From an uncultured virus (IMG/VR IMGVR_UViG_3300037010_002878) (Duplodnaviria > Heunggongvirae > Uroviricota > Caudoviricetes), in IMG/VR virus record IMGVR_UViG_3300037010_002878, positions 1 through 64,000 of that record: a DNA stretch of 64,000 bases; one strand, written 5' to 3'. The notes under the pieces were generated by a model that was not told where the DNA came from, ran no database searches, and saw only the letters and a program-made list of their open reading frames with translations. Below, one piece after another: positions 1 to 16,011 of this stretch. The translations under genes were made by a program, and so were the position numbers. Every line of letters starts with the position of its first letter. The first letter of the stretch is position 1.

Positions 1-21
1 GGGGAATCAAATTCCCCTTTA
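1..21 (-). terminator. Intrinsic terminator-like hairpin downstream of Asn-rich leader ORF (3' tail cut off by window edge)
   Basis: Minus strand AAAGGGGAAT-TTG-ATTCCCC: 7-bp G/C-rich stem about 10 nt after the leader stop. Any U-tract would lie outside the window. Confidence 0.65.
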
Positions 22-29
22 AAGAAAAC

Positions 30-173
30 TTAGATTGAAGTGTTCTGTAAAGAAGAATTATTTAACCATTGTTGGCATTGCCCCAACCCAGCTAAATTTA
101 GTAGATTATTGCGGAGCACGTTATTACGATTTGCTGCGTTGATATTAACGATGTTGTTGTTTACGTTATACAT
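30..173 (-). CDS. 47-aa Asn-rich putative leader peptide (not in ORF track)
   Basis: Manual translation MYNVNNNIVNINAANRNNVLRNNLLNLAGLGQCQQWLNNSSLQNTSI*. RBS AAGGAG 7 nt upstream, promoter at 240-261. Confidence 0.7.
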   Translation of the reverse strand: MYNVNNNIVNINAANRNNVLRNNLLNLAGLGQCQQWLNNSSLQNTSI

Positions 174-239
174 TTACGTGCTCCTTATTTTTATTTTATT
201 TATTGTTTGAAAAATTACTTTTTCTTTTTATGTATATGT

Positions 240-261
240 ATTATAACACAATATACCTTAA
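240..261 (-). promoter_or_regulatory. Host-type sigma70 promoter TTAAG-N11-TATAAT (extended -10) driving Asn-rich leader
   Basis: Minus strand TTAAG gtatattgTGt TATAAT; the same motif recurs at 8 other sites. Confidence 0.7.
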
Positions 262-342
262 AGTTGGATTAAATTTATTAACTTTTGTGAAAGACTTTTC
301 ATTTAAGAAAATATTGCCCTTCATAAAAATTAATTAAAGGTT

Positions 343-419
343 TGTTGCTAGACGGAATTGCACTGTATCTGGAGTGTCCAATGTGCTCTCCTATTTTACT
401 ATTATAACTACAAGCAACA
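343..419 (-). pseudogene. Degenerate tRNA-like element
   Basis: Acceptor-like pairing TGTTGCT/AGCAACA, T-loop-like GTGCAATTC, imperfect central stem around TTGGA, no CCA. Confidence 0.3.
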
Positions 420-426
420 TATCAAA

Positions 427-510
427 TGGTGGGTATGGTTGGACTTGAACCAACAGTCAGAAAGAACGGTTTTACAGACCGCGCGGCTACCAATTACCGG
501 TTACACACCC
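427..510 (-). tRNA. trnY: tRNA-Tyr(GTA) copy 1
   Basis: Cloverleaf GGGTGTG/CATACCC, loop CTGTAAA, long variable arm, GTTCAAGTC T-loop, encoded CCA. Confidence 0.93.
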
Positions 511-667
511 ATATAAAACTTCATCTTGTGCAACATAGGAATGTGAACGTTGAACGTTATAGCCTCATTCCAAGCACATAAGCCTTGCAGAAGATATGAT
601 AGTTTCATCACTGCAATGACTTCAAAGTTTTAATAATAATATTCTAAAATGTCATTATTAAAACTTT

Positions 668-741
668 TGGTGCTCGTACCCAGAGTTGAACTGGGGTTAC
701 GCCGTTATAAGCGGGGCGCTCTACCATTAAGCTATACGAGC
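668..741 (-). tRNA. trnI: tRNA-Ile(TAT), rare AUA-reading anticodon
   Basis: GCTCGTA/TACGAGC acceptor, anticodon loop CT-TAT-AA, T-arm CCCAG-TTCAACT-CTGGG, ACCA end. Confidence 0.9.
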
Positions 742-783
742 ATATAAAATGTTTCGTATATCAGATATGTCTGTTTCCATCAT
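727..783 (-). CDS. Mini-ORF (17-18 aa) with three ATA codons, overlapping the 5' end of tRNA-Ile(TAT)
   Basis: AAGGAG-cat-ATG ATG GAA ACA GAC ATA TCT GAT ATA CGA AAC ATT TTA TAT GCT CGT ATA GCT TAA = MMETDISDIRNILYARIA*. Confidence 0.5.
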   Translation of the reverse strand: MMETDISDIRNILYARIA

Positions 784-874
784 ATGCTCCTTTTGTTTTT
801 TAATTACTTTTTATGTACAAATATTAAGAATATAATCCAACTTAAAGTTGGTATATTCAAAAAGAATTTCTAAA

Positions 875-1762
875 TCAATCGTACCATTTATCTCTTGTAC
901 TTGATACGATTAATATGTCTTTATCTAGCTTAAAACTTGTCTTATTATCGCCGAAAACTAGTTTTACTGCATACATTACATCATCTTCACCATATTTAGT
1001 TATTAGCTTTTTAAGGTTAAATTTAGTTGTTATATATGTACGTGTACCTGATACATATGGTGATGATGGAATTGAACTTGATGATGCATCAGAACTAATA
1101 GGTTTCAATTTTTTAAGTTCACGTATAATTTCCGTAGAAGATAATTCTTTAGAAAACACTTCTGAAAATTTTTCTTTAGCGTCTTTAAATGCTTTGAATT
1201 TATTATCAATATCATTTATTAGCGCATTTGCTATAACTCCATCAAAATTACCTTTTGCAAACACTTCCAATTCAGTAGAAGTTCCATTGTCAAAGATGAC
1301 TTTTCCATACACCCCTGATACATAAGTACTGTCCTTAACATTATTCCTTAAATTTTCTACTTTTTTAATTGATGTATATGCTTTCTTATCCAAAGCATTA
1401 ATAATCAAACCTTTTCTGAACGTTGATACGTACTCATTCCATTCAGGAATTTTATATGATTTTGATTCTTTTACATCAAGTGAGTTGTTGTTTTCGGTGT
1501 ATAATCTTACCAACACTTCCATATTATCTGTAATATATATAGATAGGATAAACGGAAGGTTATTAATCCTAACCTTAAAGTAAGTTACCCTTCCTTTGTT
1601 TTCTGTGAAATATATACCTGACCAATATCTATCACCTATCCAAGGATGTAAACTAACTTTGTCCTTGATACCCCACGCACTTTTATTACTGAAATTAACA
1701 TTTTTCAATGCATCATCGATAAATGTATTGCTCTCTTCAAATAGTTCTTTAAATTGCATCAT
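875..1762 (-). CDS. Hypothetical protein, possible internal head protein
   Basis: 295-aa ORF preceded by late promoter TATAAATA (1781-1788). N-terminus MMQFKELFEE resembles T4-type capsid-targeting sequences. Confidence 0.7.
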   Translation of the reverse strand: MMQFKELFEESNTFIDDALKNVNFSNKSAWGIKDKVSLHPWIGDRYWSGIYFTENKGRVTYFKVRINNLPFILSIYITDNMEVLVRLYTENNNSLDVKESKSYKIPEWNEYVSTFRKGLIINALDKKAYTSIKKVENLRNNVKDSTYVSGVYGKVIFDNGTSTELEVFAKGNFDGVIANALINDIDNKFKAFKDAKEKFSEVFSKELSSTEIIRELKKLKPISSDASSSSIPSSPYVSGTRTYITTKFNLKKLITKYGEDDVMYAVKLVFGDNKTSFKLDKDILIVSSTRDKWYD

Positions 1763-1797
1763 TATCCCTAATTTTATGATTATTTATAATTAGGCCT

Positions 1798-1873
1798 TGG
1801 TTGCTGTTGCAGGAGTTGAACCTGCTGTCTCTGGGTTATGAGCCCAGCGGCGAAACCGTTTGCCCCTACAGCT
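1798..1873 (-). tRNA. trnM: tRNA-Met(CAT), initiator-like
   Basis: Loop CT-CAT-AA, three G-C pairs in anticodon stem (CTGGG/CCCAG), 1:72 mismatch, CCA. Confidence 0.88.
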
Positions 1874-1885
1874 ATATAAAATTTT

Positions 1886-1960
1886 TGGTCCTCGATGATT
1901 GAATCGAACAATCATTTTGCGATTATCGGTCGCATGTACTAACCGTTGTACGAATCGAGG
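1886..1960 (-). tRNA. trnI: tRNA-Ile(GAT) copy 1
   Basis: Stem TGCGA/TCGCA, loop CC-GAT-AA (C33), CCTCGAT/ATCGAGG acceptor, ACCA. Confidence 0.88.
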
Positions 1961-1965
1961 ATGAA

Positions 1966-2048
1966 TGGTGGTTAGGTGTGGTTTCGATCCACTCCCGTAA
2001 AGACAGGTTTTACAGACCTGTTGCCAGAGCCACTGGCTTTACCTAACC
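1966..2048 (-). tRNA. trnY: tRNA-Tyr(GTA) copy 2
   Basis: GGTTAGG/CCTAACC acceptor, CAGGT-CTGTAAA-ACCTG, long variable arm, ACCA. Confidence 0.9.
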
Positions 2049-2053
2049 ATATA

Positions 2054-2127
2054 TGGTGCCCAATGACTGAATCGAACAGTCGACAACTGATTACAAATCA
2101 GTTATTATACCTCTTAACTAATCGGGC
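2054..2127 (-). tRNA. trnT: tRNA-Thr(TGT)
   Basis: Loop TT-TGT-AA in ACTGA/TCAGT stem, GTTCGATTC T-loop, ACCA. Confidence 0.92.
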
Positions 2128-2139
2128 ATTTTATCTTTT

Positions 2140-2232
2140 TGGAGGGCAATGTCGGGTACGATCCGACAAGAGTTTTTTAGGCTCTGCTAGTTTTCAAGAC
2201 TAGTGCAATTATTCCATTTCTGCCAATTGCCC
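2140..2232 (-). tRNA. trnS: tRNA-Ser(TGA)
   Basis: Loop CT-TGA-AA in CTAGT/ACTAG stem, long variable arm, GGGCAAT/ATTGCCC acceptor, CCA. Confidence 0.88.
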
Positions 2233-2237
2233 ATGTT

Positions 2238-2311
2238 TGGTAGTTCTAGAAGGTACTGACCCTTCGTCTATCCCTTATCAAGGGATTACTCTGCCATTGA
2301 GCTATAGAACT
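2238..2311 (-). tRNA. trnI: tRNA-Ile(GAT) copy 2
   Basis: ATCCC-TTGATAA-GGGAT, AGTTCTA/TAGAACT acceptor, atypical T-loop GTCAGTA, ACCA. Confidence 0.87.
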
Positions 2312-2319
2312 ATTTGTTT

Positions 2320-2394
2320 TGGCGATCTTGAGGAATTTTGAAATCCCGACCCTTCCGCTGACAACGGAGCACTCTGCCTCTGAGCTACAAGATC
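2320..2394 (-). tRNA. trnD: tRNA-Asp(GTC) copy 1
   Basis: Loop TT-GTC-AG, GATCTTG/CAAGATC acceptor, G discriminator, CCA. Confidence 0.88.
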
Positions 2395-2405
2395 ATTTAA
2401 ATTAT

Positions 2406-2482
2406 TGGTGGAGAATACGGGTTACGCTCCCGTCTTCCTACGTTGCAAGCGTAGAGTAATCAACCTAATATACTAATTCCCC
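2406..2482 (-). tRNA. trnA: tRNA-Ala(TGC)
   Basis: Loop CT-TGC-AA, acceptor GGGGAAT/ATTCTCC with the G3:U70 Ala identity pair, ACCA. Confidence 0.92.
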
Positions 2483-2642
2483 ATTTTTAAATTTCATTTT
2501 TACGACCCTTAAGACAACCTAAATTTTTTCATATTCAGGAAAAGATTCTTTTTCTTTATTTTCTTATTTCAACATTGAATTATTAGTTTCCCATTTAAGG
2601 TACTTACAACGTTCGCTACGTGAAAGCTAATTCTTGAACGTC

Positions 2643-2714
2643 CGGTCCCACGGGGAATTGAACCCCGATCTCATGGCTGACAACCACATATAATAACCAC
2701 TATACGATGAGACC
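2643..2714 (-). tRNA. trnD: tRNA-Asp(GTC) copy 2 (no encoded CCA)
   Basis: Loop TT-GTC-AG, GGTCTCA/TGGGACC acceptor, CGGGG-TTCAATT-CCCCG T-arm, G73. Confidence 0.85.
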
Positions 2715-2726
2715 ATTTTAAATTTT

Positions 2727-2802
2727 TGGTAACACTAACGGGGCTCGAACCCGTAACATATCCTTGAAAGGGATATAAGATAACCTATTTCTCCATAGTG
2801 TC
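2727..2802 (-). tRNA. trnE: tRNA-Glu(TTC)
   Basis: TATCC-CTTTCAA-GGATA, GACACTA/TAGTGTT acceptor, ACCA. Confidence 0.9.
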
Positions 2803-2812
2803 ATTTAACAAT

Positions 2813-2901
2813 TGGTGGTCAGTCTTGGAGTCGAACCAAGAGTCCTTACGAAACCGGGTTACAGCCGGTGCACCTATCCAGTTAGTGTTGATTAACTGAC
2901 C
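2813..2901 (-). tRNA. trnY: tRNA-Tyr(GTA) copy 3
   Basis: ACCGG-CTGTAAC-CCGGT, GGTCAGT/ACTGACC acceptor, long variable arm, ACCA. Confidence 0.88.
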
Positions 2902-3030
2902 ATTCTTTGAGAAGTTTTAAGTAAACTCTCGTAAAAGACTGCTAATTCAGAACACAATAAACTCGCGTTATATTGTACTTAAAATGAAATAATTGATTGA
3001 ATTTGTCCGAATGGACTGAGGATTCATTCA

Positions 3031-3068
3031 ATGTCTTTCATTTCTGAAAGACATAAATGACTTTCAGA
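3031..3068 (-). promoter_or_regulatory. Mutually exclusive hairpins (putative attenuator) right after leader-peptide stop
   Basis: Minus strand TCTGAAAG (3068-3061) can pair with CTTTCAGA (3050-3043). This competes with the perfect 10-bp hairpin ATGTCTTTCA-GAAA-TGAAAGACAT (3054-3031). Confidence 0.6.
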
Positions 3069-3194
3069 TTAGATAATATCTGTCTCCGATGCAATCGCAT
3101 CCGTTTCAGAAATAGAGTAGGCATAGGTATAATCAGATGTGTTTACTGATGTATATGATATTACATTTACTGTTGAGTACATTGTGTAAATCAT
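3069..3194 (-). CDS. 41-aa putative leader peptide of the tRNA operon (not in ORF track)
   Basis: MIYTMYSTVNVISYTSVNTSDYTYAYSISETDAIASETDII*. RBS AGGAG 7 nt upstream, promoter at 3229-3250. Confidence 0.75.
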   Translation of the reverse strand: MIYTMYSTVNVISYTSVNTSDYTYAYSISETDAIASETDII

Positions 3195-3228
3195 TTTGTT
3201 TCTCCTATGTTTCTTTTTATATGTTGTT

Positions 3229-3250
3229 ATTATATCATATGTTACCTTAA
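3229..3250 (-). promoter_or_regulatory. Promoter TTAAG-N11-TATAAT for leader plus tRNA array
   Basis: Minus strand TTAAG gtaacataTGa TATAAT. Confidence 0.72.
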
Positions 3251-3285
3251 AATAACATTAAATGATACAAATCTTTTTCTTTTAT

Positions 3286-3672
3286 TTATTGTTTGAAAAA
3301 TACGTCCGTTGCAATTTTAGCATACAAATTATAGTTAAGATCTTTCAATTCCAATTGTTCAATAACGTCTAAGGCTTTATTCTTAGTAAGTGTTGGAAAC
3401 GACAAATCAATATTGTTTGCCAAATATTCTTTTATTTCTTCTAAAGAAATTGTAGCGCTGAACTTGCTTGTGTTTTCATTTACTTCTTCATTTAAACGTT
3501 CTAATACAAGTTCACGTCCTACTTTTTTTGAAAACATATCTTTGCTTGAGCAGACTGAACATGCCAGAAACAATGAATCATCATTGTACATCCATCCCAA
3601 GGTGACACCGCCTTTATTACCTTCAAATTGAAAGTGTTTAAATCTTGTATTATCCAATGTCGCTGTTAACAT
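3286..3672 (-). CDS. Hypothetical phage protein (CxxxDxFxKKxGR motif)
   Basis: 128-aa ORF with RBS AAGGA and own promoter (3702-3723). Confidence 0.75.
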   Translation of the reverse strand: MLTATLDNTRFKHFQFEGNKGGVTLGWMYNDDSLFLACSVCSSKDMFSKKVGRELVLERLNEEVNENTSKFSATISLEEIKEYLANNIDLSFPTLTKNKALDVIEQLELKDLNYNLYAKIATDVFFKQ

Positions 3673-4734: not shown

Positions 4735-5778
4735 ATGTATGAAAATTCAATAGTAGTAGTAAAAAATTGTACATCAACCGGCATAGATGTAATTCCTATT
4801 AATTCATTAATATTAAATAAAGATACTGGTGATATTTTTTTATTAACAAATAAAACAAACGTATCATCTACTACACAATTTTGTGATGTAGTAGGTAAAG
4901 TATTAATCGCTAGTCTTGTTATAAGTGGAGCATTGTTTTATGGCGGTAGTAATAATATAAATCTAAATTTAGCTACCATGCTATCAGCAACGGCTACATT
5001 AGTTCAAGCTGAAAAGAGTGTAGGTACAGCTAGATATGGATTAGCTGGAGCTAACGTAGGTACAAATGCTTTATTTTATGGTGGATATACTACAACATAT
5101 GTATCTACCACTACTTTATTATCACCAACAATTAATTTAGTACAATCAGAGACTAATGTAGGTACAGCTAGGGCTACCCCAGCTGGGGCTAAGGTTGGTA
5201 CAAATGCTTTATTTTACGGTGGTGCCGTTGATTCAAGCTATTATGGGGTAGATACCGTAACATTACTATCACCAACAGCTACATTAGTTCAAGCTGAAAC
5301 AAATCTTGGAACATCTATGTACTCATTAGCTGGAGCTAACGTAGGTACAAATGCTTTATTTTATGGTGGAGCTAATTATGGAAGCTATAATACAGCTTCT
5401 GTAGTATCTCCATTGGGCGTCTTAGTATCTCAGTCTACTAATATAGGTACAGCTAGATTTGGCCTAGCAGGAGCAAATGTTGGTACGAATGCTTTATTTT
5501 ATGGTGGAATACAAATCTGGCCCACTGTTCTCAATACAACTACTTTGTTATCACCGACGGCTGTTTTATTACAAGCTGAAACAAGTGTTGGATCAGTAAA
5601 ATGGTCAAATTCTGGAGTTAATGTTGGTACAAATGCCCTATTTTATGCTGGGTGTAATGATGCATCAACAACATTTATCAATACTACTACACTACTATCA
5701 CCTACCGCAACATTAGTACAGCCAGAGACTAATGTTGGAACATCAGGCCGTCATTACTTAGGAGGAGCATTAATATGA
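4735..5778 (+). CDS. Kelch-like beta-propeller repeat virion protein 1
   Basis: About six ~47-aa repeats ALFYGG-x-TTLLSPTATLVQAETNVGTARYGLAGANVGTN. Confidence 0.75.
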   Translation: MYENSIVVVKNCTSTGIDVIPINSLILNKDTGDIFLLTNKTNVSSTTQFCDVVGKVLIASLVISGALFYGGSNNINLNLATMLSATATLVQAEKSVGTARYGLAGANVGTNALFYGGYTTTYVSTTTLLSPTINLVQSETNVGTARATPAGAKVGTNALFYGGAVDSSYYGVDTVTLLSPTATLVQAETNLGTSMYSLAGANVGTNALFYGGANYGSYNTASVVSPLGVLVSQSTNIGTARFGLAGANVGTNALFYGGIQIWPTVLNTTTLLSPTAVLLQAETSVGSVKWSNSGVNVGTNALFYAGCNDASTTFINTTTLLSPTATLVQPETNVGTSGRHYLGGALI

Positions 5779-6893
5779 GTTTTGAAAGACAGTCTCTTGT
5801 TGTTTTTAAAGATGAGTCATCAACTGGAATAAACTTTGTTGCAAATAATAGATTTGTATTTGTGAACTCAACTGGATATATGTATATTAAAGTTAATTCA
5901 ACTAATATCACTACCAATACCACCATAGCACAAGCAATTTCAGGTGCAAATTTAATTTTAATAACTGGAGTTATTCCTGCTCCACCAACAACGACAACAA
6001 CGACAACAACGACAACAACGACAACAACTACTACAACAACGTCAACTAGTTTTACCAAAGCTTTATTTCATAATGGGATAGATAGTTCACCAACAAGTGT
6101 ATCAACAACCACATTGTTATCTTCAACGGCTACTTTAGTTCAAGCAGAAACTTCAGTAGGTACAGCAAAATTTGGCGTAGCAGGAGCCAATGTTGGTACA
6201 AATGCATTATTTTATGGCGGAACAGATAATTCTTATTATTACAACACAGTTACATTATTATCACCAACTGCGACATTGGTTCAAGCTGAGTCTACTGTTG
6301 GGTCAGGAAGAAGTTATATATCTGGAGCAAATGTTGGTACAAATGCACTATTCTATGCTGGGTACAATTCTGGATATAAGAATACGGCAACAATATTGAC
6401 ACCTACTGGTTCATTGGTTCAAGCTGAGTCAACTGTAGGAACAGTGAGAACTGGAACGGGTGGAGCCAATGTTGGTACAAATGTATTATTTTATGGTGGA
6501 ACAAATGGTTCATATTTTAATACAGCAACACTGTTATCATCAACAGCTACTTTGGTACAAGCGGAATCAAATGTTGGCACAGCACGGTCATATACTGCTG
6601 GAGCTAATGTTGGTACGAATGCTTTATTCTACGGTGGGTATAATGGTTCATACTTAAATACAGCAACACTGTTATCATCAACAGCTACTTTGGTACAAGC
6701 TGAATCAAATGTTGGTTCTACTAGACTTGGACCAGCAGGAGCTAACGTAGGTACAAATGCTTTATATTATGCTGGGGCTAATAGTGTTAAATTAAATACT
6801 GCTACATTATTATCGCCAACAGCTACTTTAGTTCAAGCAGAAACTAATATAGGTAGTACACCTAGACATGGACTCGCAGGATCTAGTTTATAA
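5775..6893 (+). CDS. Kelch-like beta-propeller repeat virion protein 2 with poly-Thr linker
   Basis: Same N-domain and six repeats; PAPP-T18 linker. Confidence 0.78.
   Translation: MSFERQSLVVFKDESSTGINFVANNRFVFVNSTGYMYIKVNSTNITTNTTIAQAISGANLILITGVIPAPPTTTTTTTTTTTTTTTTTTSTSFTKALFHNGIDSSPTSVSTTTLLSSTATLVQAETSVGTAKFGVAGANVGTNALFYGGTDNSYYYNTVTLLSPTATLVQAESTVGSGRSYISGANVGTNALFYAGYNSGYKNTATILTPTGSLVQAESTVGTVRTGTGGANVGTNVLFYGGTNGSYFNTATLLSSTATLVQAESNVGTARSYTAGANVGTNALFYGGYNGSYLNTATLLSSTATLVQAESNVGSTRLGPAGANVGTNALYYAGANSVKLNTATLLSPTATLVQAETNIGSTPRHGLAGSSL
5988..6041 (+). repeat. ACAACAACG-type microsatellite encoding poly-Thr
   Basis: About four 9-bp units in an 18-codon Thr run. Confidence 0.9.
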
Positions 6894-6925
6894 ATATTAA
6901 AATATAATATGAAAGAAGAGTAAAA

Positions 6926-7564
6926 ATGGCATCACAAGTAAATTCACAATATGCATATCTTAACCTTATTAATGGAGAGACAATTTGGGAGAGATTAAGA
7001 ATAGTTCGTAATTTTATTGAGGATAGAAAAATTGCAAAAAAATTACAAACTACACAAGAACTAAAACATCAAGCATACATTGCTAAAGTTCAAGAAGCTA
7101 CTAAAGAATCAGAAAGATTATTTGCTCAAGCAGAGTTAGAAGAATTTGAAGCTCATCAAGAACAGCAAACAGATGGTTATAAAAAGCTTGATGATGAACT
7201 TGCTTTCTTGTTAAAGTATGAAGCGGAATTAGCATCAATTGCTGAACAGTCTCGTATAGAAGGTAAATCAGATGATGAAATGTACCAAATAAATATGGAA
7301 ACAGAGGTTTATTTAAGAAACCTTAAAAAAATTGAAACAGAACAAGTGGCAAGAACCTTAGGTATTTCTCAAGCAACCGCTGAAGAAGCTATGAGAATAC
7401 CTCAAATGCGTGTACAGTTGTTAAATACAGCCACAGCAATGATGCTACCTGATACTGATGAGAACAAAGCTAATTTAATAGCAAATGGTATTAACCTTAA
7501 TAACATACCACTAAGTGTTCAAGAGACTCTAAGTATAACCAAATTACTAACACAAGGAAACTAA
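6926..7564 (+). CDS. Hypothetical coiled-coil protein
   Basis: 212-aa E/Q/A-rich helical ORF; late promoter at 6889-6896. Confidence 0.75.
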   Translation: MASQVNSQYAYLNLINGETIWERLRIVRNFIEDRKIAKKLQTTQELKHQAYIAKVQEATKESERLFAQAELEEFEAHQEQQTDGYKKLDDELAFLLKYEAELASIAEQSRIEGKSDDEMYQINMETEVYLRNLKKIETEQVARTLGISQATAEEAMRIPQMRVQLLNTATAMMLPDTDENKANLIANGINLNNIPLSVQETLSITKLLTQGN

Positions 7565-7566
7565 AA

Positions 7567-8082
7567 ATGAAACTCGTAACATGGCTAGCGAAAGATTCAG
7601 AAACTCTATTTGGGAAATTTGACCCAATGTCTAATACGGATACAAGAACTAATGTTCAAATTATAGCAATTGGGCAATTTGAACCAGACGCAAGTCAATA
7701 CATTGGTCTATCTAATGAAGATGTTACCCCAAAAGAATGTGCTGAAATTTTGAATGTTCCCGAAAATACATTTTATAACATATATAGCCCTATTAATGGA
7801 TATTTTTTAACGGATGCTTGGGTTGAATCAATATTGAAAGATTTGCGTCAAAAAGAACTAGATAACTTAACAGTAAAAGTTGAAGATCATGTTTATGATG
7901 CTGATGAAGTATCTCAAGATCGTATGGCAAGAGCCTATATGATTATTGGTGATACAGGAACCATTGATTGGAAATTAGCAGATAATAAAGTATTTAATGT
8001 TTCAGGTGGAGAGATTAAACAAGCTTTGACACTCGCTGGAAAGGCTCAAACAGCTCTATGGGCTAAATACACACTTAATTAA
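7567..8082 (+). CDS. Tail-fibre assembly chaperone (DUF4376-like C-terminus)
   Basis: YDADEVSQDRMARA...IDWKLADN...ALTLAGKAQTALW motif. Confidence 0.75.
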   Translation: MKLVTWLAKDSETLFGKFDPMSNTDTRTNVQIIAIGQFEPDASQYIGLSNEDVTPKECAEILNVPENTFYNIYSPINGYFLTDAWVESILKDLRQKELDNLTVKVEDHVYDADEVSQDRMARAYMIIGDTGTIDWKLADNKVFNVSGGEIKQALTLAGKAQTALWAKYTLN

Positions 8083-8094
8083 CAAGGATATAAT

Positions 8095-9177
8095 ATGGGG
8101 GCATCACAGTCTCAGTCTCAAATTTCTGGATTTACCAGAAACCCTATATGGGTGTTTAAGGATGAAACTTCAACTGGGTTAGATAAGATTCCAGTAGGAG
8201 AGATTGTCGCTATTAAATCCAACAAATTACTATATCAATGTGTTAGTAAAGTTGGAGTCACTAGTAGCACACAAGTTGGTTCAGCTACTGGATTATTACC
8301 TTATACATTTAAGGTAACAACCTCTTTTACCAAAGCTTTGTTCTATGGGGGGTGGATATCAACCGTTGTGGCTACCACGACTCTATTATCTTCAACAGCT
8401 ACTTTAGTTCAAGCAGAAACCAATATAGGTACAGCTAGATATGGATTATCAGGATCTAACGTGGGAACTAATGCTTTATTCTACGGTGGGTGGATATCAA
8501 CAACAGCTGTTTCCACAGCTACTTTATTATCACCAACCGCTACTTTGGTTCAGGCAGAAACAAATGTAGGTACAGCTAGACGTGAAGTAGCAGGAGCAAA
8601 AGTAGGTACAAATGCTTTATTTTATGCTGGATGGGGTTCAACAACAGCTGTTTCCACAGCTACTCTATTATCTTCAACAGCTACATTAGTGCAAGCCGAA
8701 ACAAATGTAGGTGTAGCTAGATATGGATTATCAGGAGCTAATGTAGGAACTAATGCTTTATTCTACGGTGGATTTGCCCTTTCAGGAGCTATACCAACAG
8801 CTACTCTATTATCTTCAACAGCTACTTTAGTTCAAGCAGAAACCAATATAGGTACAGCTAGATATGGATTATCAGGATCTAACGTGGGAACTAATGCTTT
8901 ATTCTACGGTGGATATGGCAATAACATAATATCTACCACGACTCTATTATCACCAACAGCTACTTTAGTTCAAGCAGAAACCAATATAGGTTCAGCTAGA
9001 TATGAATTAGCAGGAGCTAATGTAGGAACTAATGCATTATTCTATGGTGGAGATACGGGAACTAGCTCTCACGTAGCTGTGAAAACAGCTACTCTATTAT
9101 CTTCAACAGCTACTTTAGTTCAAGCAGAAACTAATGTAGGTACAGCTAGATATTACCTAGCAGGAGCATCATTATGA
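8095..9177 (+). CDS. Kelch-like beta-propeller repeat virion protein 3
   Basis: VFKDETSTGLDKIP N-domain plus six near-identical repeats. Confidence 0.78.
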   Translation: MGASQSQSQISGFTRNPIWVFKDETSTGLDKIPVGEIVAIKSNKLLYQCVSKVGVTSSTQVGSATGLLPYTFKVTTSFTKALFYGGWISTVVATTTLLSSTATLVQAETNIGTARYGLSGSNVGTNALFYGGWISTTAVSTATLLSPTATLVQAETNVGTARREVAGAKVGTNALFYAGWGSTTAVSTATLLSSTATLVQAETNVGVARYGLSGANVGTNALFYGGFALSGAIPTATLLSSTATLVQAETNIGTARYGLSGSNVGTNALFYGGYGNNIISTTTLLSPTATLVQAETNIGSARYELAGANVGTNALFYGGDTGTSSHVAVKTATLLSSTATLVQAETNVGTARYYLAGASL

Positions 9178-14301: not shown

Positions 14302-16011
14302 ATGAGATTAAAAGACATTGATAAACTGATAACATCATTAGAATTACCCAAAGATCATGAAGGTTATTATTTAGATGCTTTTGGAAATAGAATTTCATTT
14401 AATGGCGTTAGAACATTAAAACCATCATTTACACAATTACAATTAACTCAGCCGCATATTGAAGAAATAATAAAATGTGCTAATAGTTATCAATATTTTA
14501 GAGCTAACTATTGTATAATTTTAACTAAAAAAGGTTATGATAGACCAGAGCCACGTGAATATCAAAGAAGATTAGAAGTCGATTTGTTAAATTCAAAGCG
14601 TAATATAGTCTTGTTTGGTAGACAATCTGGGAAAACAGTTACTATTGCCACTTACCTTCTATGGAAAGCGTTATTTTCAAAAGATATGACTATAGGAATA
14701 GCTGCAAACAAACAAGGTATGGCTGTAGAAGTTTTGGATAAAATAAAAAATATTTTTATCAATTTACCTATTTGGCTTATGGCTGGAGTAACAACATGGA
14801 ATAAGAAAACTATTGAATTTGAAAATGGCGTAAGGATTTTAACCAGTGCGACAAATGGGGATTCATTTCGTGGTTTCTCATTAGGAATGTTATACATAGA
14901 TGAAACAGCGTTTATTAGACCGACCATATGGAAAGAATTTGAAGACTCCGTATTCCCTACTGTAGAGGCTATTGAAAACTCACAGATAATCATTTCTAGT
15001 ACACCTAAAGGTATGAACCACTTCTATGACTTAGTTCAAGGAAGCCGATTAAATGTTAATGGATATACATTAACAGAAATGGAATGGAATGAAGTACCTG
15101 GTAGAGACGAAACGTGGCGTAAAAATATTATAGCAGATAAAGGACTAACATTTTTTGAGCAAAATTATGGTTGTAAATTTAGTGGATCTGCGGATACATT
15201 AGTTTCTCATCAATGTCTTCAAAGAATAATTTCAACACCAGTTCTATATAAAAACAATAATGTCGATGAGTTAAGAGTTTATAAAGAGCCCGAACCTTCT
15301 CACAAATACATATGTTCTGTGGATAGTGCTAAAGATGGTATAGACAAAATAGCAATTCAAATGATAGACGTAACTAAATTTCCATTTGTGCAAGTAGCAG
15401 CGGCTAATTTAGATATAAGTTATTTAAAGCTCGCTGGCCCATTAACTGAGCTATGTAGAGAATATAATAATGCCTTTTTAGTTGTAGAAAATAATGAAGG
15501 TGCCGGACAATCATTAGTAGACACAGTCACAGAAACTTATGATTATGACAACGTTTATAAAGACAAACCTGGTAAAGATGGAAAAGCTAAAAGATATTAT
15601 GGATTCAGAACTTCAGGAAAGTCCAGAAAAGTAATATTAAGTATGTTAAAAACGTTTCTTGAAAATGATAGGTTGGTTTTAAATGATAAAGAAACTATAG
15701 AAGAACTTTTCCATTTTCTAAAAATAAATGGAAAATATCAAGCCGATGATGGATATCATGATGATTTAATAATGGCATTAGCAATTTCATTTGCTCCTAT
15801 TATGGATATTAAAAATATGGATGACCAAAAGAAATTCATTGATAATATGTTTTCTGATTCAGAAGAAGATGAGGAAGATGCTACATTTGAAGAAATGTTT
15901 GCATTTGGTTCTTTTGATGATATTGATGATTCAGTCTACAAAAATGAATTTGAAGACTGGAATTCATATAGAGAAAATAATGATTCATATACAGATAGTA
16001 ATTTTGATTAA
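14302..16011 (+). CDS. gp17: Terminase large subunit, gp17-like
   Basis: Walker A GRQSGKT, YIDETAF, SSTPKGMNHFY, nuclease HDDLIMA. Confidence 0.97.
   Translation: MRLKDIDKLITSLELPKDHEGYYLDAFGNRISFNGVRTLKPSFTQLQLTQPHIEEIIKCANSYQYFRANYCIILTKKGYDRPEPREYQRRLEVDLLNSKRNIVLFGRQSGKTVTIATYLLWKALFSKDMTIGIAANKQGMAVEVLDKIKNIFINLPIWLMAGVTTWNKKTIEFENGVRILTSATNGDSFRGFSLGMLYIDETAFIRPTIWKEFEDSVFPTVEAIENSQIIISSTPKGMNHFYDLVQGSRLNVNGYTLTEMEWNEVPGRDETWRKNIIADKGLTFFEQNYGCKFSGSADTLVSHQCLQRIISTPVLYKNNNVDELRVYKEPEPSHKYICSVDSAKDGIDKIAIQMIDVTKFPFVQVAAANLDISYLKLAGPLTELCREYNNAFLVVENNEGAGQSLVDTVTETYDYDNVYKDKPGKDGKAKRYYGFRTSGKSRKVILSMLKTFLENDRLVLNDKETIEELFHFLKINGKYQADDGYHDDLIMALAISFAPIMDIKNMDDQKKFIDNMFSDSEEDEEDATFEEMFAFGSFDDIDDSVYKNEFEDWNSYRENNDSYTDSNFD

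Follow-up and report, generated by a model that had tools for sequence, protein, structure and literature searches.

In an uncultured phage (IMG/VR record IMGVR_UViG_3300037010_002878), the gene for tRNA-Ile with anticodon UAU, tRNA-Ile(UAU), is preceded by a short open reading frame (ORF), hereafter the mini-ORF, which starts behind a strong Shine-Dalgarno (SD) sequence, contains AUA codons and ends inside the tRNA itself. The best single reading of this arrangement, which we hold tentatively, is that of a translated leader through which the fate of the precursor tRNA (pre-tRNA) is linked to ribosome traffic. It is preferred because of the quality of the start signal, because this signal recurs at the UAU tRNA of a related phage, and because neighbouring short ORFs match in their codons the tRNAs that follow them. 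A by-product of cassette shuffling that regulates nothing is almost as likely, and the two readings are weighed against each other below.

The DNA analysed, 64,000 nucleotides (nt) and called the window, covers the first 64 kb of a record that has 76,397 bases and was judged to be about half complete. Its phage (P1; 30% G+C) carries genes which PHROGs names as portal, large terminase, gp23-type major head protein, baseplate wedge, Dda-like helicase, DNA ligase and PhoH, and the best matches of its capsid among cultured phages are Vibrio phage Va1 (51%) and Campylobacter phages (47–48%). P1 is therefore an uncultured, distant T4-type myovirus. The sequencing runs holding at least half of the window's sampled words are labelled as microbial mat and sediment metagenomes. 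Two further contigs were used, L079 from the same phage and L017 (77.8 kb) from P2, the nearest diverged relative in IMG/VR (capsid identity 79%). ARAGORN finds 11 tRNA genes on the minus strand of the window (2897-427), and the array extends to 25 tRNAs in L079. Demand for AUA reading is high in P1, since ATA makes up 42% of its Ile codons (34 per 1000 codons). An extra tRNA at window 1801-1873 (minus strand), found by Rfam only (40.5 bits) and missed by ARAGORN, has a CAU anticodon loop; it may be either a Met tRNA or a lysidine-dependent Ile tRNA, and in the latter case P1 would carry both ways of reading AUA.

The mini-ORF, its start signal and its predicted pairing with the tRNA

The mini-ORF and its tRNA lie on the minus strand (Table 1). 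The SD is followed by two adjacent ATG codons, of which ATG 780, 6 nt after the SD, is the better spaced. The peptide is M(M)ETDISDIRNILYARIA, and the codons after the ATGs are GAA ACA GAC ATA TCT GAT ATA CGA AAC ATT TTA TAT GCT CGT ATA GCT TAA. The ATA codons stand at 768-766, 759-757 and 735-733, the last one inside the tRNA, with an ATT at 750-748, CGA at 756-754 and TTA at 747-745 (AUA three times, CGA and UUA once each). The stop codon TAA (729-727) coincides with tRNA nucleotides 13-15 in the D-arm, and the last five codons, stop included, are the first 15 nt of tRNA-Ile(UAU). A preliminary description made from the letters alone had reported an AAGGAG-led frame with three ATA codons and one ATT that stops in the D-arm, and direct reading bears this out.

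The Rfam tRNA model scores 65.1 bits at 671-741, the top value of the region. The cloverleaf has a 7-nt anticodon loop with U33, the anticodon UAU and A37, and one C-C mismatch in the anticodon stem. Its closest tRNAs are P1's own tRNA-Ile(GAU), at 69%; as far as sequence goes, this similarity and the discriminator A fit charging with isoleucine without proving it. In an Rfam scan of window 1-3400 with E up to 0.1, no T-box or other leader family was found. The same scan returned the tRNAs, two sub-threshold opposite-strand matches to Plastid-ycf2 lying over tRNAs, and a sub-threshold CRISPR-DR41 match at 1128-1156. Insertion of the tRNA into a longer gene was considered and rejected, as the joined flanks of tRNA-Ile(UAU) give merely a 22-codon frame.

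Table 1. Features of the mini-ORF unit and of the two larger leaders (window positions)
Feature	Position	Strand	Basis	Details
Shine-Dalgarno AAGGAG	787..792	-	sequence read	
Mini-ORF	727..783	-		18 codons from ATG 783-781, or 17 from ATG 780-778
tRNA-Ile, anticodon UAU	668..741	-	ARAGORN	discriminator A, CCA encoded
Leader helix, 5' arm (predicted)	780..789	-	folds	part of the SD and both start codons
Leader helix, 3' arm (predicted)	738..747	-	folds, shuffle test	leader -6 to -1 and tRNA nucleotides 1-4
Small inner hairpin, 4 pairs (predicted)	762..773	-	folds	surrounds the first ATA codon
Degenerate promoter cassette copy	807..851	-		upstream box 846-841, -10-like hexamer near 827-821, conserved start of the 5' untranslated region (UTR) 816-807
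Stem-loop, 6 pairs, 3-nt loop	837..851	-	terminator-like site	just after the stop of the 295-amino-acid gene
A+T-rich inverted repeat	624..667	-	opposite-strand self-match	directly 3' of the tRNA
41-amino-acid leader	3194-3069	-		followed by tRNAs Tyr, Glu, Asp, Ala, Asp, Ile, Ser, Thr, Ile; 34/40 residues match (P 3e-7, amino-acid set chosen after the data were seen)
47-amino-acid leader	173-30	-		followed by tRNAs Asn, Asn, Val, Cys, Gly, Gly, Leu x3, Gln, Leu; 32/46 residues match (P 8e-8, amino-acid set chosen after the data were seen)

On both strands of the 76.4-kb genome AAGGAG occurs 34 times: 14 copies precede called genes, 5 precede shorter frames (the mini-ORF included) and 15 have no start codon behind them. 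Given these counts, AAGGAG with an ATG 6 nt further on is unlikely to fall by chance into a 130-nt spacer, and a composition-based estimate puts the expectation for AAGGAG with an ATG 3-10 nt behind it at ~0.002 per such spacer. The 20-nt start region of the mini-ORF, from the A-rich run through ATGATGG, also precedes an ORF of 96 amino acids (aa) in an unrelated IMG/VR phage (L088); this exact start sequence therefore serves as a gene start elsewhere. Kinship of that phage with P1 through the 20-nt stretch was rejected, with no blastn match and one of 69 ORFs giving a tblastn match, at 30%. Judged from these comparisons, the start signal of the mini-ORF is very probably a real translation-initiation region and not that of a chance ORF; we infer that the mini-ORF is translated.

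When the 45 tRNAs of P1 and P2 were scanned for SD-led frames that read into the tRNA, a strong SD with an ATG was observed at the two UAU tRNAs only. The other matches were a frame that lies within tRNA-Asp in P1 and P2 alike and has a GTG start behind a weak GAGG SD, and, in P2, a single GTG frame led by AGGAG. Frames lacking such a signal are a different matter. The preliminary description had cautioned that short ORFs can arise by chance, and for the frame that crosses into the tRNA the caution is justified: an ATG frame crosses the 5' end of 37 of the 45 tRNAs, and in 18 of them it has at least 10 codons upstream of the tRNA. One example of such easy crossing is a 36-codon frame without SD (window 501-611, minus strand) that runs into the second tRNA-Tyr (510-427). 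The caution does not extend to the start signal, as judged by the AAGGAG counts. On a reading of pure chance, DNA of 30% G+C would by coincidence bring together an SD-like hexamer, two ATGs, ATA codons and the complement described below. Every feature but the SD is indeed weak by itself (ATA, P about 0.015; complement in 0.5% to 11% of shuffles; ORF into the tRNA in 18 of 45), but the rarity of the start signal and the recurrence of the design at P2's UAU tRNA both speak against pure chance, which we consider very unlikely.

The segment of the ribosome-binding site (RBS) at 789-782 had also been described as the exact reverse complement of 745-738, across the tRNA 5' boundary. This is the case, and the complement extends to 10 pairs (789-780 with 747-738), one of them G-U. 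The pairing corresponds to the predicted fold of the nascent leader: the 10-pair helix forms in 816-730 (z -2.6) and the fold of 800-736 has z -3.3, with 1 of 200 shuffles as stable in each case, and the helix is also the centroid of the full leader plus tRNA fold. The exact 8-nt complement appears in 23 of 5000 dinucleotide shuffles of the whole leader. The sole alternative pairing in the folds of the P1 unit is that of the start region with the tRNA 5' end versus the acceptor stem. For P2, tRNA positions -1 to +5 are predicted to pair with the ATG and the codon after it, and the SD with a pyrimidine run further upstream (z-scores -2.2 and -2.9). Thus, start site and 5' acceptor strand are predicted to hold each other in both phages.

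The UAU unit of P2 comprises an SD at L017 15907-15911, an ATG at 15918 and the tRNA at 15931-16006, which places the start signal 13 nt before the tRNA. Its frame has 16 codons and stops in the anticodon loop. The start regions of P1 and P2 agree at 12 of 15 positions, and the two UAU tRNAs are non-orthologous, that of P2 being nearest to tRNA-Cys (74%) and carrying A33 and a discriminator U. AGGAG followed by an ATG and a short frame occurs four times in 39.8 kb of P2 (both strands), always within the tRNA region. P2's UAU tRNA thus stands in a different unit, which has a similar start signal, predicted to pair with the 5' acceptor strand, but no AUA codon upstream of the tRNA.

Some further observations concern P2. 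A second copy of the UAU tRNA at L017 ~7425-7500, just before tRNA-Trp, has the same D and anticodon arms and no matching 5' acceptor strand, and is not called by ARAGORN. Directly after the UAU tRNA (L017 16064-16339) follows a promoter and then a secreted-looking protein of 91 aa with a CxxCH motif, by its sequence a possible small phage-borne cytochrome c.

Leader ORFs ahead of tRNA genes in P1, P2 and other phages

The mini-ORF unit is one of three modules of promoter, SD, short ORF and tRNA, each of which heads a tRNA sub-cluster. The other two modules encode larger leaders whose residues match the tRNAs behind them (Table 1; the tRNAs behind the 47-aa leader were read in the continuation in L079, 14040-14290). 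The 41-aa leader is built almost entirely from Tyr, Thr, Ser, Ile, Asp, Ala and Glu, and the 47-aa leader has 15 Asn, plus Leu, Gln, Val, Gly and Cys. A cross-table of both leaders against both tRNA sets gives a Fisher value of 1e-8, and none of ~19,000 proteome windows reaches the match value of either leader. With the amino-acid sets having been chosen after the data were seen, a more conservative count, which compares the top-ranked residues with the tRNA set, still yields values of about 1e-3 and 2e-2. In the P2 counterparts, 39 of 44 and 29 of 55 residues match (L017 3225-3412 and 4395-4625, respectively).

Both larger frames are kept open in P2. The 41-aa leader is poorly conserved there in sequence with its composition kept, and a third variant, on a metagenome contig, carries a 3-base insertion in this frame. 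The 47-aa leaders of P1 and P2 are set apart by three indels (6, 15 and 6 bases), each of which keeps the frame. After the 41-aa stop (3020-3068), single folds of P1 and P2 predict a hairpin of 16-17 pairs, both strands of which show changes. In both phages a short segment at the stop codon is predicted to be able to pair with the top of the hairpin's 5' arm. A conserved G4/C4 hairpin lies a few bases after the 47-aa stop. None of the 14 Thr codons of the 41-aa leaders of P1 and P2 is ACT, which accounts for 41% of genome Thr codons. Since these other short ORFs mirror the tRNAs behind them, a ribosome-sensing role of the mini-ORF is credible. Another small frame of P2 is led by AGGAG (L017 15317-15361; 14 codons, three of them Cys and three Asn) and lies ~100 nt upstream of a tRNA with anticodon CAU and of an unusual tRNA-like gene of 94 nt (Rfam 34.6 bits, 15538-15631).

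A translated leader need not depend on its codons. A pioneer ribosome could be loaded on the tRNA transcript, for example against Rho-type termination or early decay, with the ATA codons irrelevant; alternatively, SD and AUG could serve purely as an RNA element, keeping hold of the 5' acceptor strand for as long as the 3' strand has yet to be synthesized. P1 and P2 do share the start signal and the 5' acceptor pairing and not the upstream AUA, as this explanation would have it, and an SD-led short ORF opens all three tRNA sub-clusters. Against it, other tRNAs that bear promoters have no SD or ORF in their leaders, for example P2 tRNA-Cys (18-nt leader) and tRNA-Leu (L079 204-289), and the residue match of the two larger leaders points to codon sensing over mere ribosome loading. 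We judge codon-independent action to be unlikely in either form.

Other phages were searched with a pattern of D-arm and anticodon loop, which retrieved 52 IMG/VR loci (L019-L070) whose tRNA-Ile(UAU) belongs to a different sequence family. When P1's own context is set aside, 31 distinct ones remain, and AGGAG with an ATG reading into the tRNA occurs in none of them. In 22 of 33 distinct contexts, an ORF comes to its end within the 30 nt ahead of the tRNA; these ORFs have 40 aa or more and stop 1-17 nt short of it, the small ORFs of the three families named below 5-9 nt. ATA is present in the last 15 codons of 20 of these 22 ORFs, compared with 33% of windows elsewhere in the same ORFs, and it makes up 23 of 31 Ile codons in the ORF tails versus 42 of 104 elsewhere (Fisher 0.001). 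The largest ORF family has two conserved Ile positions, and 12 of its 13 contexts have ATA at one or both of them; two families carry a CGA-ATA dicodon nine to ten codons before the stop. These ATA-rich tails before tRNA-Ile(UAU) in other phages are suggestive only.

Cassette origin of the unit and the case against sensing

The preliminary description had seen no clear dedicated promoter. A degenerate copy of a promoter cassette is nevertheless present upstream of the mini-ORF (Table 1). P1 and P2 share a promoter family composed of an upstream TTTAAG-type box, a spacing of 10-11 nt and an extended -10 (e.g. window 3250-3228 and 262-240); L079 has 12 intact copies of its motif and L017 has 10, within 18-20 kb, before genes and single tRNAs. 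Compared with it, the copy at 851-807 has a longer spacer, a poorer -10 and no TGn, and was missed by the motif search. The stretch 851-804 is paralogous to the copy before the 47-aa ORF (267-221; 77% identity, E 8.8e-4), and the paralogy takes in the conserved first UTR bases as well as the SD with two following bases. The stem-loop 851-837 overlaps the upstream box of the promoter copy, and together they look, by sequence, like a terminator/promoter cassette.

Composite terminator/promoter motifs, PeSLs (promoter-early stem-loop), are described as mediating shuffling in T4-like phages (PMC4122927). The P1 unit resembles them in that a stem-loop and then a promoter lie between small variable ORFs of a hyperplastic region. 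Repeated PeSL copies act as recombination points, and the joints of P1 variants lie at such copies. The difference is that PeSLs are described as shuffling devices for protein genes, whereas the P1 cassette carries an SD and a leader ORF on a tRNA.

The joints in question were observed in metagenome contigs of three runs (X3, X4 and X5), at 298/668 (32 other letters between; seen in X3 and X4), 421/2137 and 262/3218, all of them cassette or tRNA borders. In nature, therefore, the cassettes of the tRNA region are found in several arrangements. In addition, mini-ORF codons 2-7 align with the last codons of the 41-aa leader (~17 of 20 bases, one gap), in line with the ETDI that the preliminary description had rightly noted in both the mini-ORF and the end of the 41-aa ORF (3194-3069). 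From the paralogy and the border joints it follows that the mini-ORF unit is a patchwork produced by the recombination typical of such regions. A conserved element with an SD-like sequence and a short TTG/GTG frame whose peptide begins DTPDTVQFR, lies at window 340-395 (minus strand) and L017 4085-4185; it stands after tRNA-Tyr in P1, between tRNA-Ser and tRNA-Thr in P2 and in another place in a contig of run X5, and may be a small structured RNA or a mobile piece.

It is thus possible that shuffling alone accounts for the unit, the promoter, UTR and SD having come from the 47-aa module and been joined, with a piece of the 41-aa leader, in front of the tRNA. The frame would then run on to the first stop, in the D-loop, with maybe low translation, its ATA codons and helix would reflect A+T-rich sequence, and nothing would be regulated. 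Both paralogies, the decay of the promoter copy, the variant joints placed exactly at cassette borders and the shuffling ascribed to PeSLs in PMC4122927 are all as this explanation would have them. So are the absence of the module from the matching place in P2, where DNA and protein searches did not find it, and the frequency of frames that read into a tRNA. The 8-nt complement also loses much of its weight when the start region is held fixed: it then appears in 558 of 5000 shuffles (11%), because just four bases before the tRNA need to fit. What shuffling alone explains less well is that SD and both ATGs are intact although the promoter decayed, that a second, non-orthologous UAU tRNA (P2) has a strong SD and ATG when none of the 43 other tRNAs does, and that the start-sequestering helix is more stable than almost all shuffles.

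Several of these points, namely the degenerate promoter, the segment shared with the 41-aa leader, the patchwork origin, the missing module in P2 and the 11% of shuffles, weigh against the translated leader. ATA accounts for 3 of the 16 sense codons of the mini-ORF, an excess that speaks for the leader but is modest (P 0.012–0.018), and upstream of the tRNA for 2 of 12, non-adjacent (P about 0.06). The third ATA (tRNA nucleotides 7-9) and the D-loop stop are inherent in the tRNA sequence. Of the 16 residues, 12 belong to the tRNA set of the 41-aa leader (P 0.017) and 5 to the mini-ORF's own Ile and Tyr set (P 0.045). A further point against the leader is that the P2 frame has no AUA upstream of the tRNA, its sole AUA lying in the anticodon loop. 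The proposal of an AUA-sensing mini-ORF thus stands as regards the presence of the codons and is weakened by their modest enrichment and by P2; release of the tRNA for processing through stalling at AUA is plausible for P1 and is not supported by P2. In the three leaders, no significant bias towards Watson-Crick cognate synonymous codons was found (14 versus 10.3 expected, 18 versus 15.5, 15 versus 13.0 and 14 versus 16.3). No terminator-like site was found between 783 and 741, which speaks against a classical attenuator.

The evidence from other phages has weaknesses of the same sort. The ATA-rich tails come from only one singleton and three unrelated ORF families. When every family is given the same weight, ATA takes fifth place among 61 codons, behind CGT, GAA, GAT and CGA, and a shared nucleotide flank may lie behind the ATA-rich tails. 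Two cultured T4-like phages, Vibrio phage Va1 and Aeromonas phage Aswh_1, show no codon-matched leaders in their tRNA regions on inspection by eye, without a formal test. A literature search on leader peptides before phage tRNA genes, or on phage tRNA-Ile(UAU), found nothing relevant among titles and abstract openings.

Searches for relatives also returned little. None of the sequences read contained a diverged orthologue of the mini-ORF, IMG/VR having identical copies only, and this is another point against the translated leader: the exact tRNA word gives 2 identical loci, and the neighbouring 295-aa gene the same 2 loci. Megablast and blastn searches for close relatives in 50,697 phage records gave two tRNA-sized matches or none. 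Two metagenome scans, one with a tRNA-Ile pattern that was verified on the window and one with a tRNA-Tyr pattern, gave 0 matches, and IMG/VR scans with the P2 UAU tRNA and the conserved leader block returned the two known lineages only. Run X5 contains a relative about 93% identical, on a contig of 1918 letters that covers 608-1795 and is known by coverage only; the run data are contigs, in which a stretch without cover is uninformative.

Away from the tRNA region, a motif of ~25 nt is repeated on the plus strand within the genes of 4735-9177 (at window 5469, 6182, 6737, 8592, 8733 and 9012). Read in frame it gives Ala-Gly-Ala-Asn-Val-Gly-Thr-Asn-Ala-Leu, which suggests a paralogous repeat-protein family adjoining the head gene.

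Proposed mechanism and relation to known leader-ORF systems

If the mini-ORF is a translated leader, the stretch 851-668 would be transcribed as a small unit with a stem-loop, a weak promoter copy, a short 5' UTR, a full-strength RBS, a 17-codon leader ORF and tRNA-Ile(UAU). In the naked transcript, SD and AUG would be paired with a segment made up of the final six bases of the leader and the initial four of the tRNA, so that the start is hidden and the 5' acceptor strand held. A ribosome running to the stop codon would cover the acceptor and D arms, and neither cloverleaf folding nor cutting by RNase P could take place meanwhile; translation and maturation would compete. A ribosome slowed at AUA, AUA-CGA (768-754) would instead occupy SD and AUG with its leading edge short of the tRNA, which would then be free to fold and be excised. 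More tRNA-Ile(UAU) would be made when AUA is read slowly. The direction of this effect and AUA as the sensed codon are the parts that we infer from the layout. In a wider form of the proposal, the whole tRNA region would be run on translated sensors, of which the AUA mini-ORF would be the most compact, with ribosome position gating RNase P access to the 5' acceptor strand; this wider form we regard as doubtful. If the mechanism holds, it would represent feedback at the level of maturation, with production of a tRNA set by the reading speed of its own codon.

Leader peptides are known from the transcription attenuators of amino-acid operons and pheST (trpL, hisL, leuL, thrL, ilvL, pheM). Like the trpL/hisL type, the P1 unit has an SD-led short ORF between a promoter-like copy and the tRNA gene, contains codons that may report on one tRNA species, and has a predicted RNA pairing that would depend on ribosome position. 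It differs in three respects. No intrinsic terminator or antiterminator follows the ORF; the ORF overlaps the product that would be regulated, the tRNA, and the step concerned would be folding and 5' processing, not termination; and the codons that would be sensed are few and not in a run. As no terminator is present, the mini-ORF unit lies outside the classical attenuator family. In translation attenuation of the ermC/cat type, a ribosome stalled in a leader ORF opens a hairpin. The likeness here is a predicted hairpin that sequesters a functional site and a paused leader ribosome that would change which strand is free. In ermC/cat, however, a drug stalls the ribosome, and what becomes free is the SD of a protein gene further downstream, whereas in P1 slow decoding would cause the stall and the 5' acceptor strand of a tRNA would become free. 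If real, the P1 unit would represent a novel form of leader-ORF control with a tRNA as its target.

The tRNA genes of phages serve to match their codon usage and, according to recent reports, also help them survive when host tRNAs are depleted. Control of the tRNA level may be especially important for a UAU tRNA, because unmodified U34 is also able to read AUG and an excess of such a tRNA reading AUG could be harmful. A leader ORF that reads the codon of its own tRNA would be a simple sensor of supply and demand, acting on folding and processing of the tRNA. If the unit arose as a by-product, it shows how promoter and RBS cassettes are pasted before tRNAs in the variable regions of T4-type phages; if the translated-leader reading is true, leader-peptide control, so far a matter of amino-acid genes, would reach tRNA genes as well.

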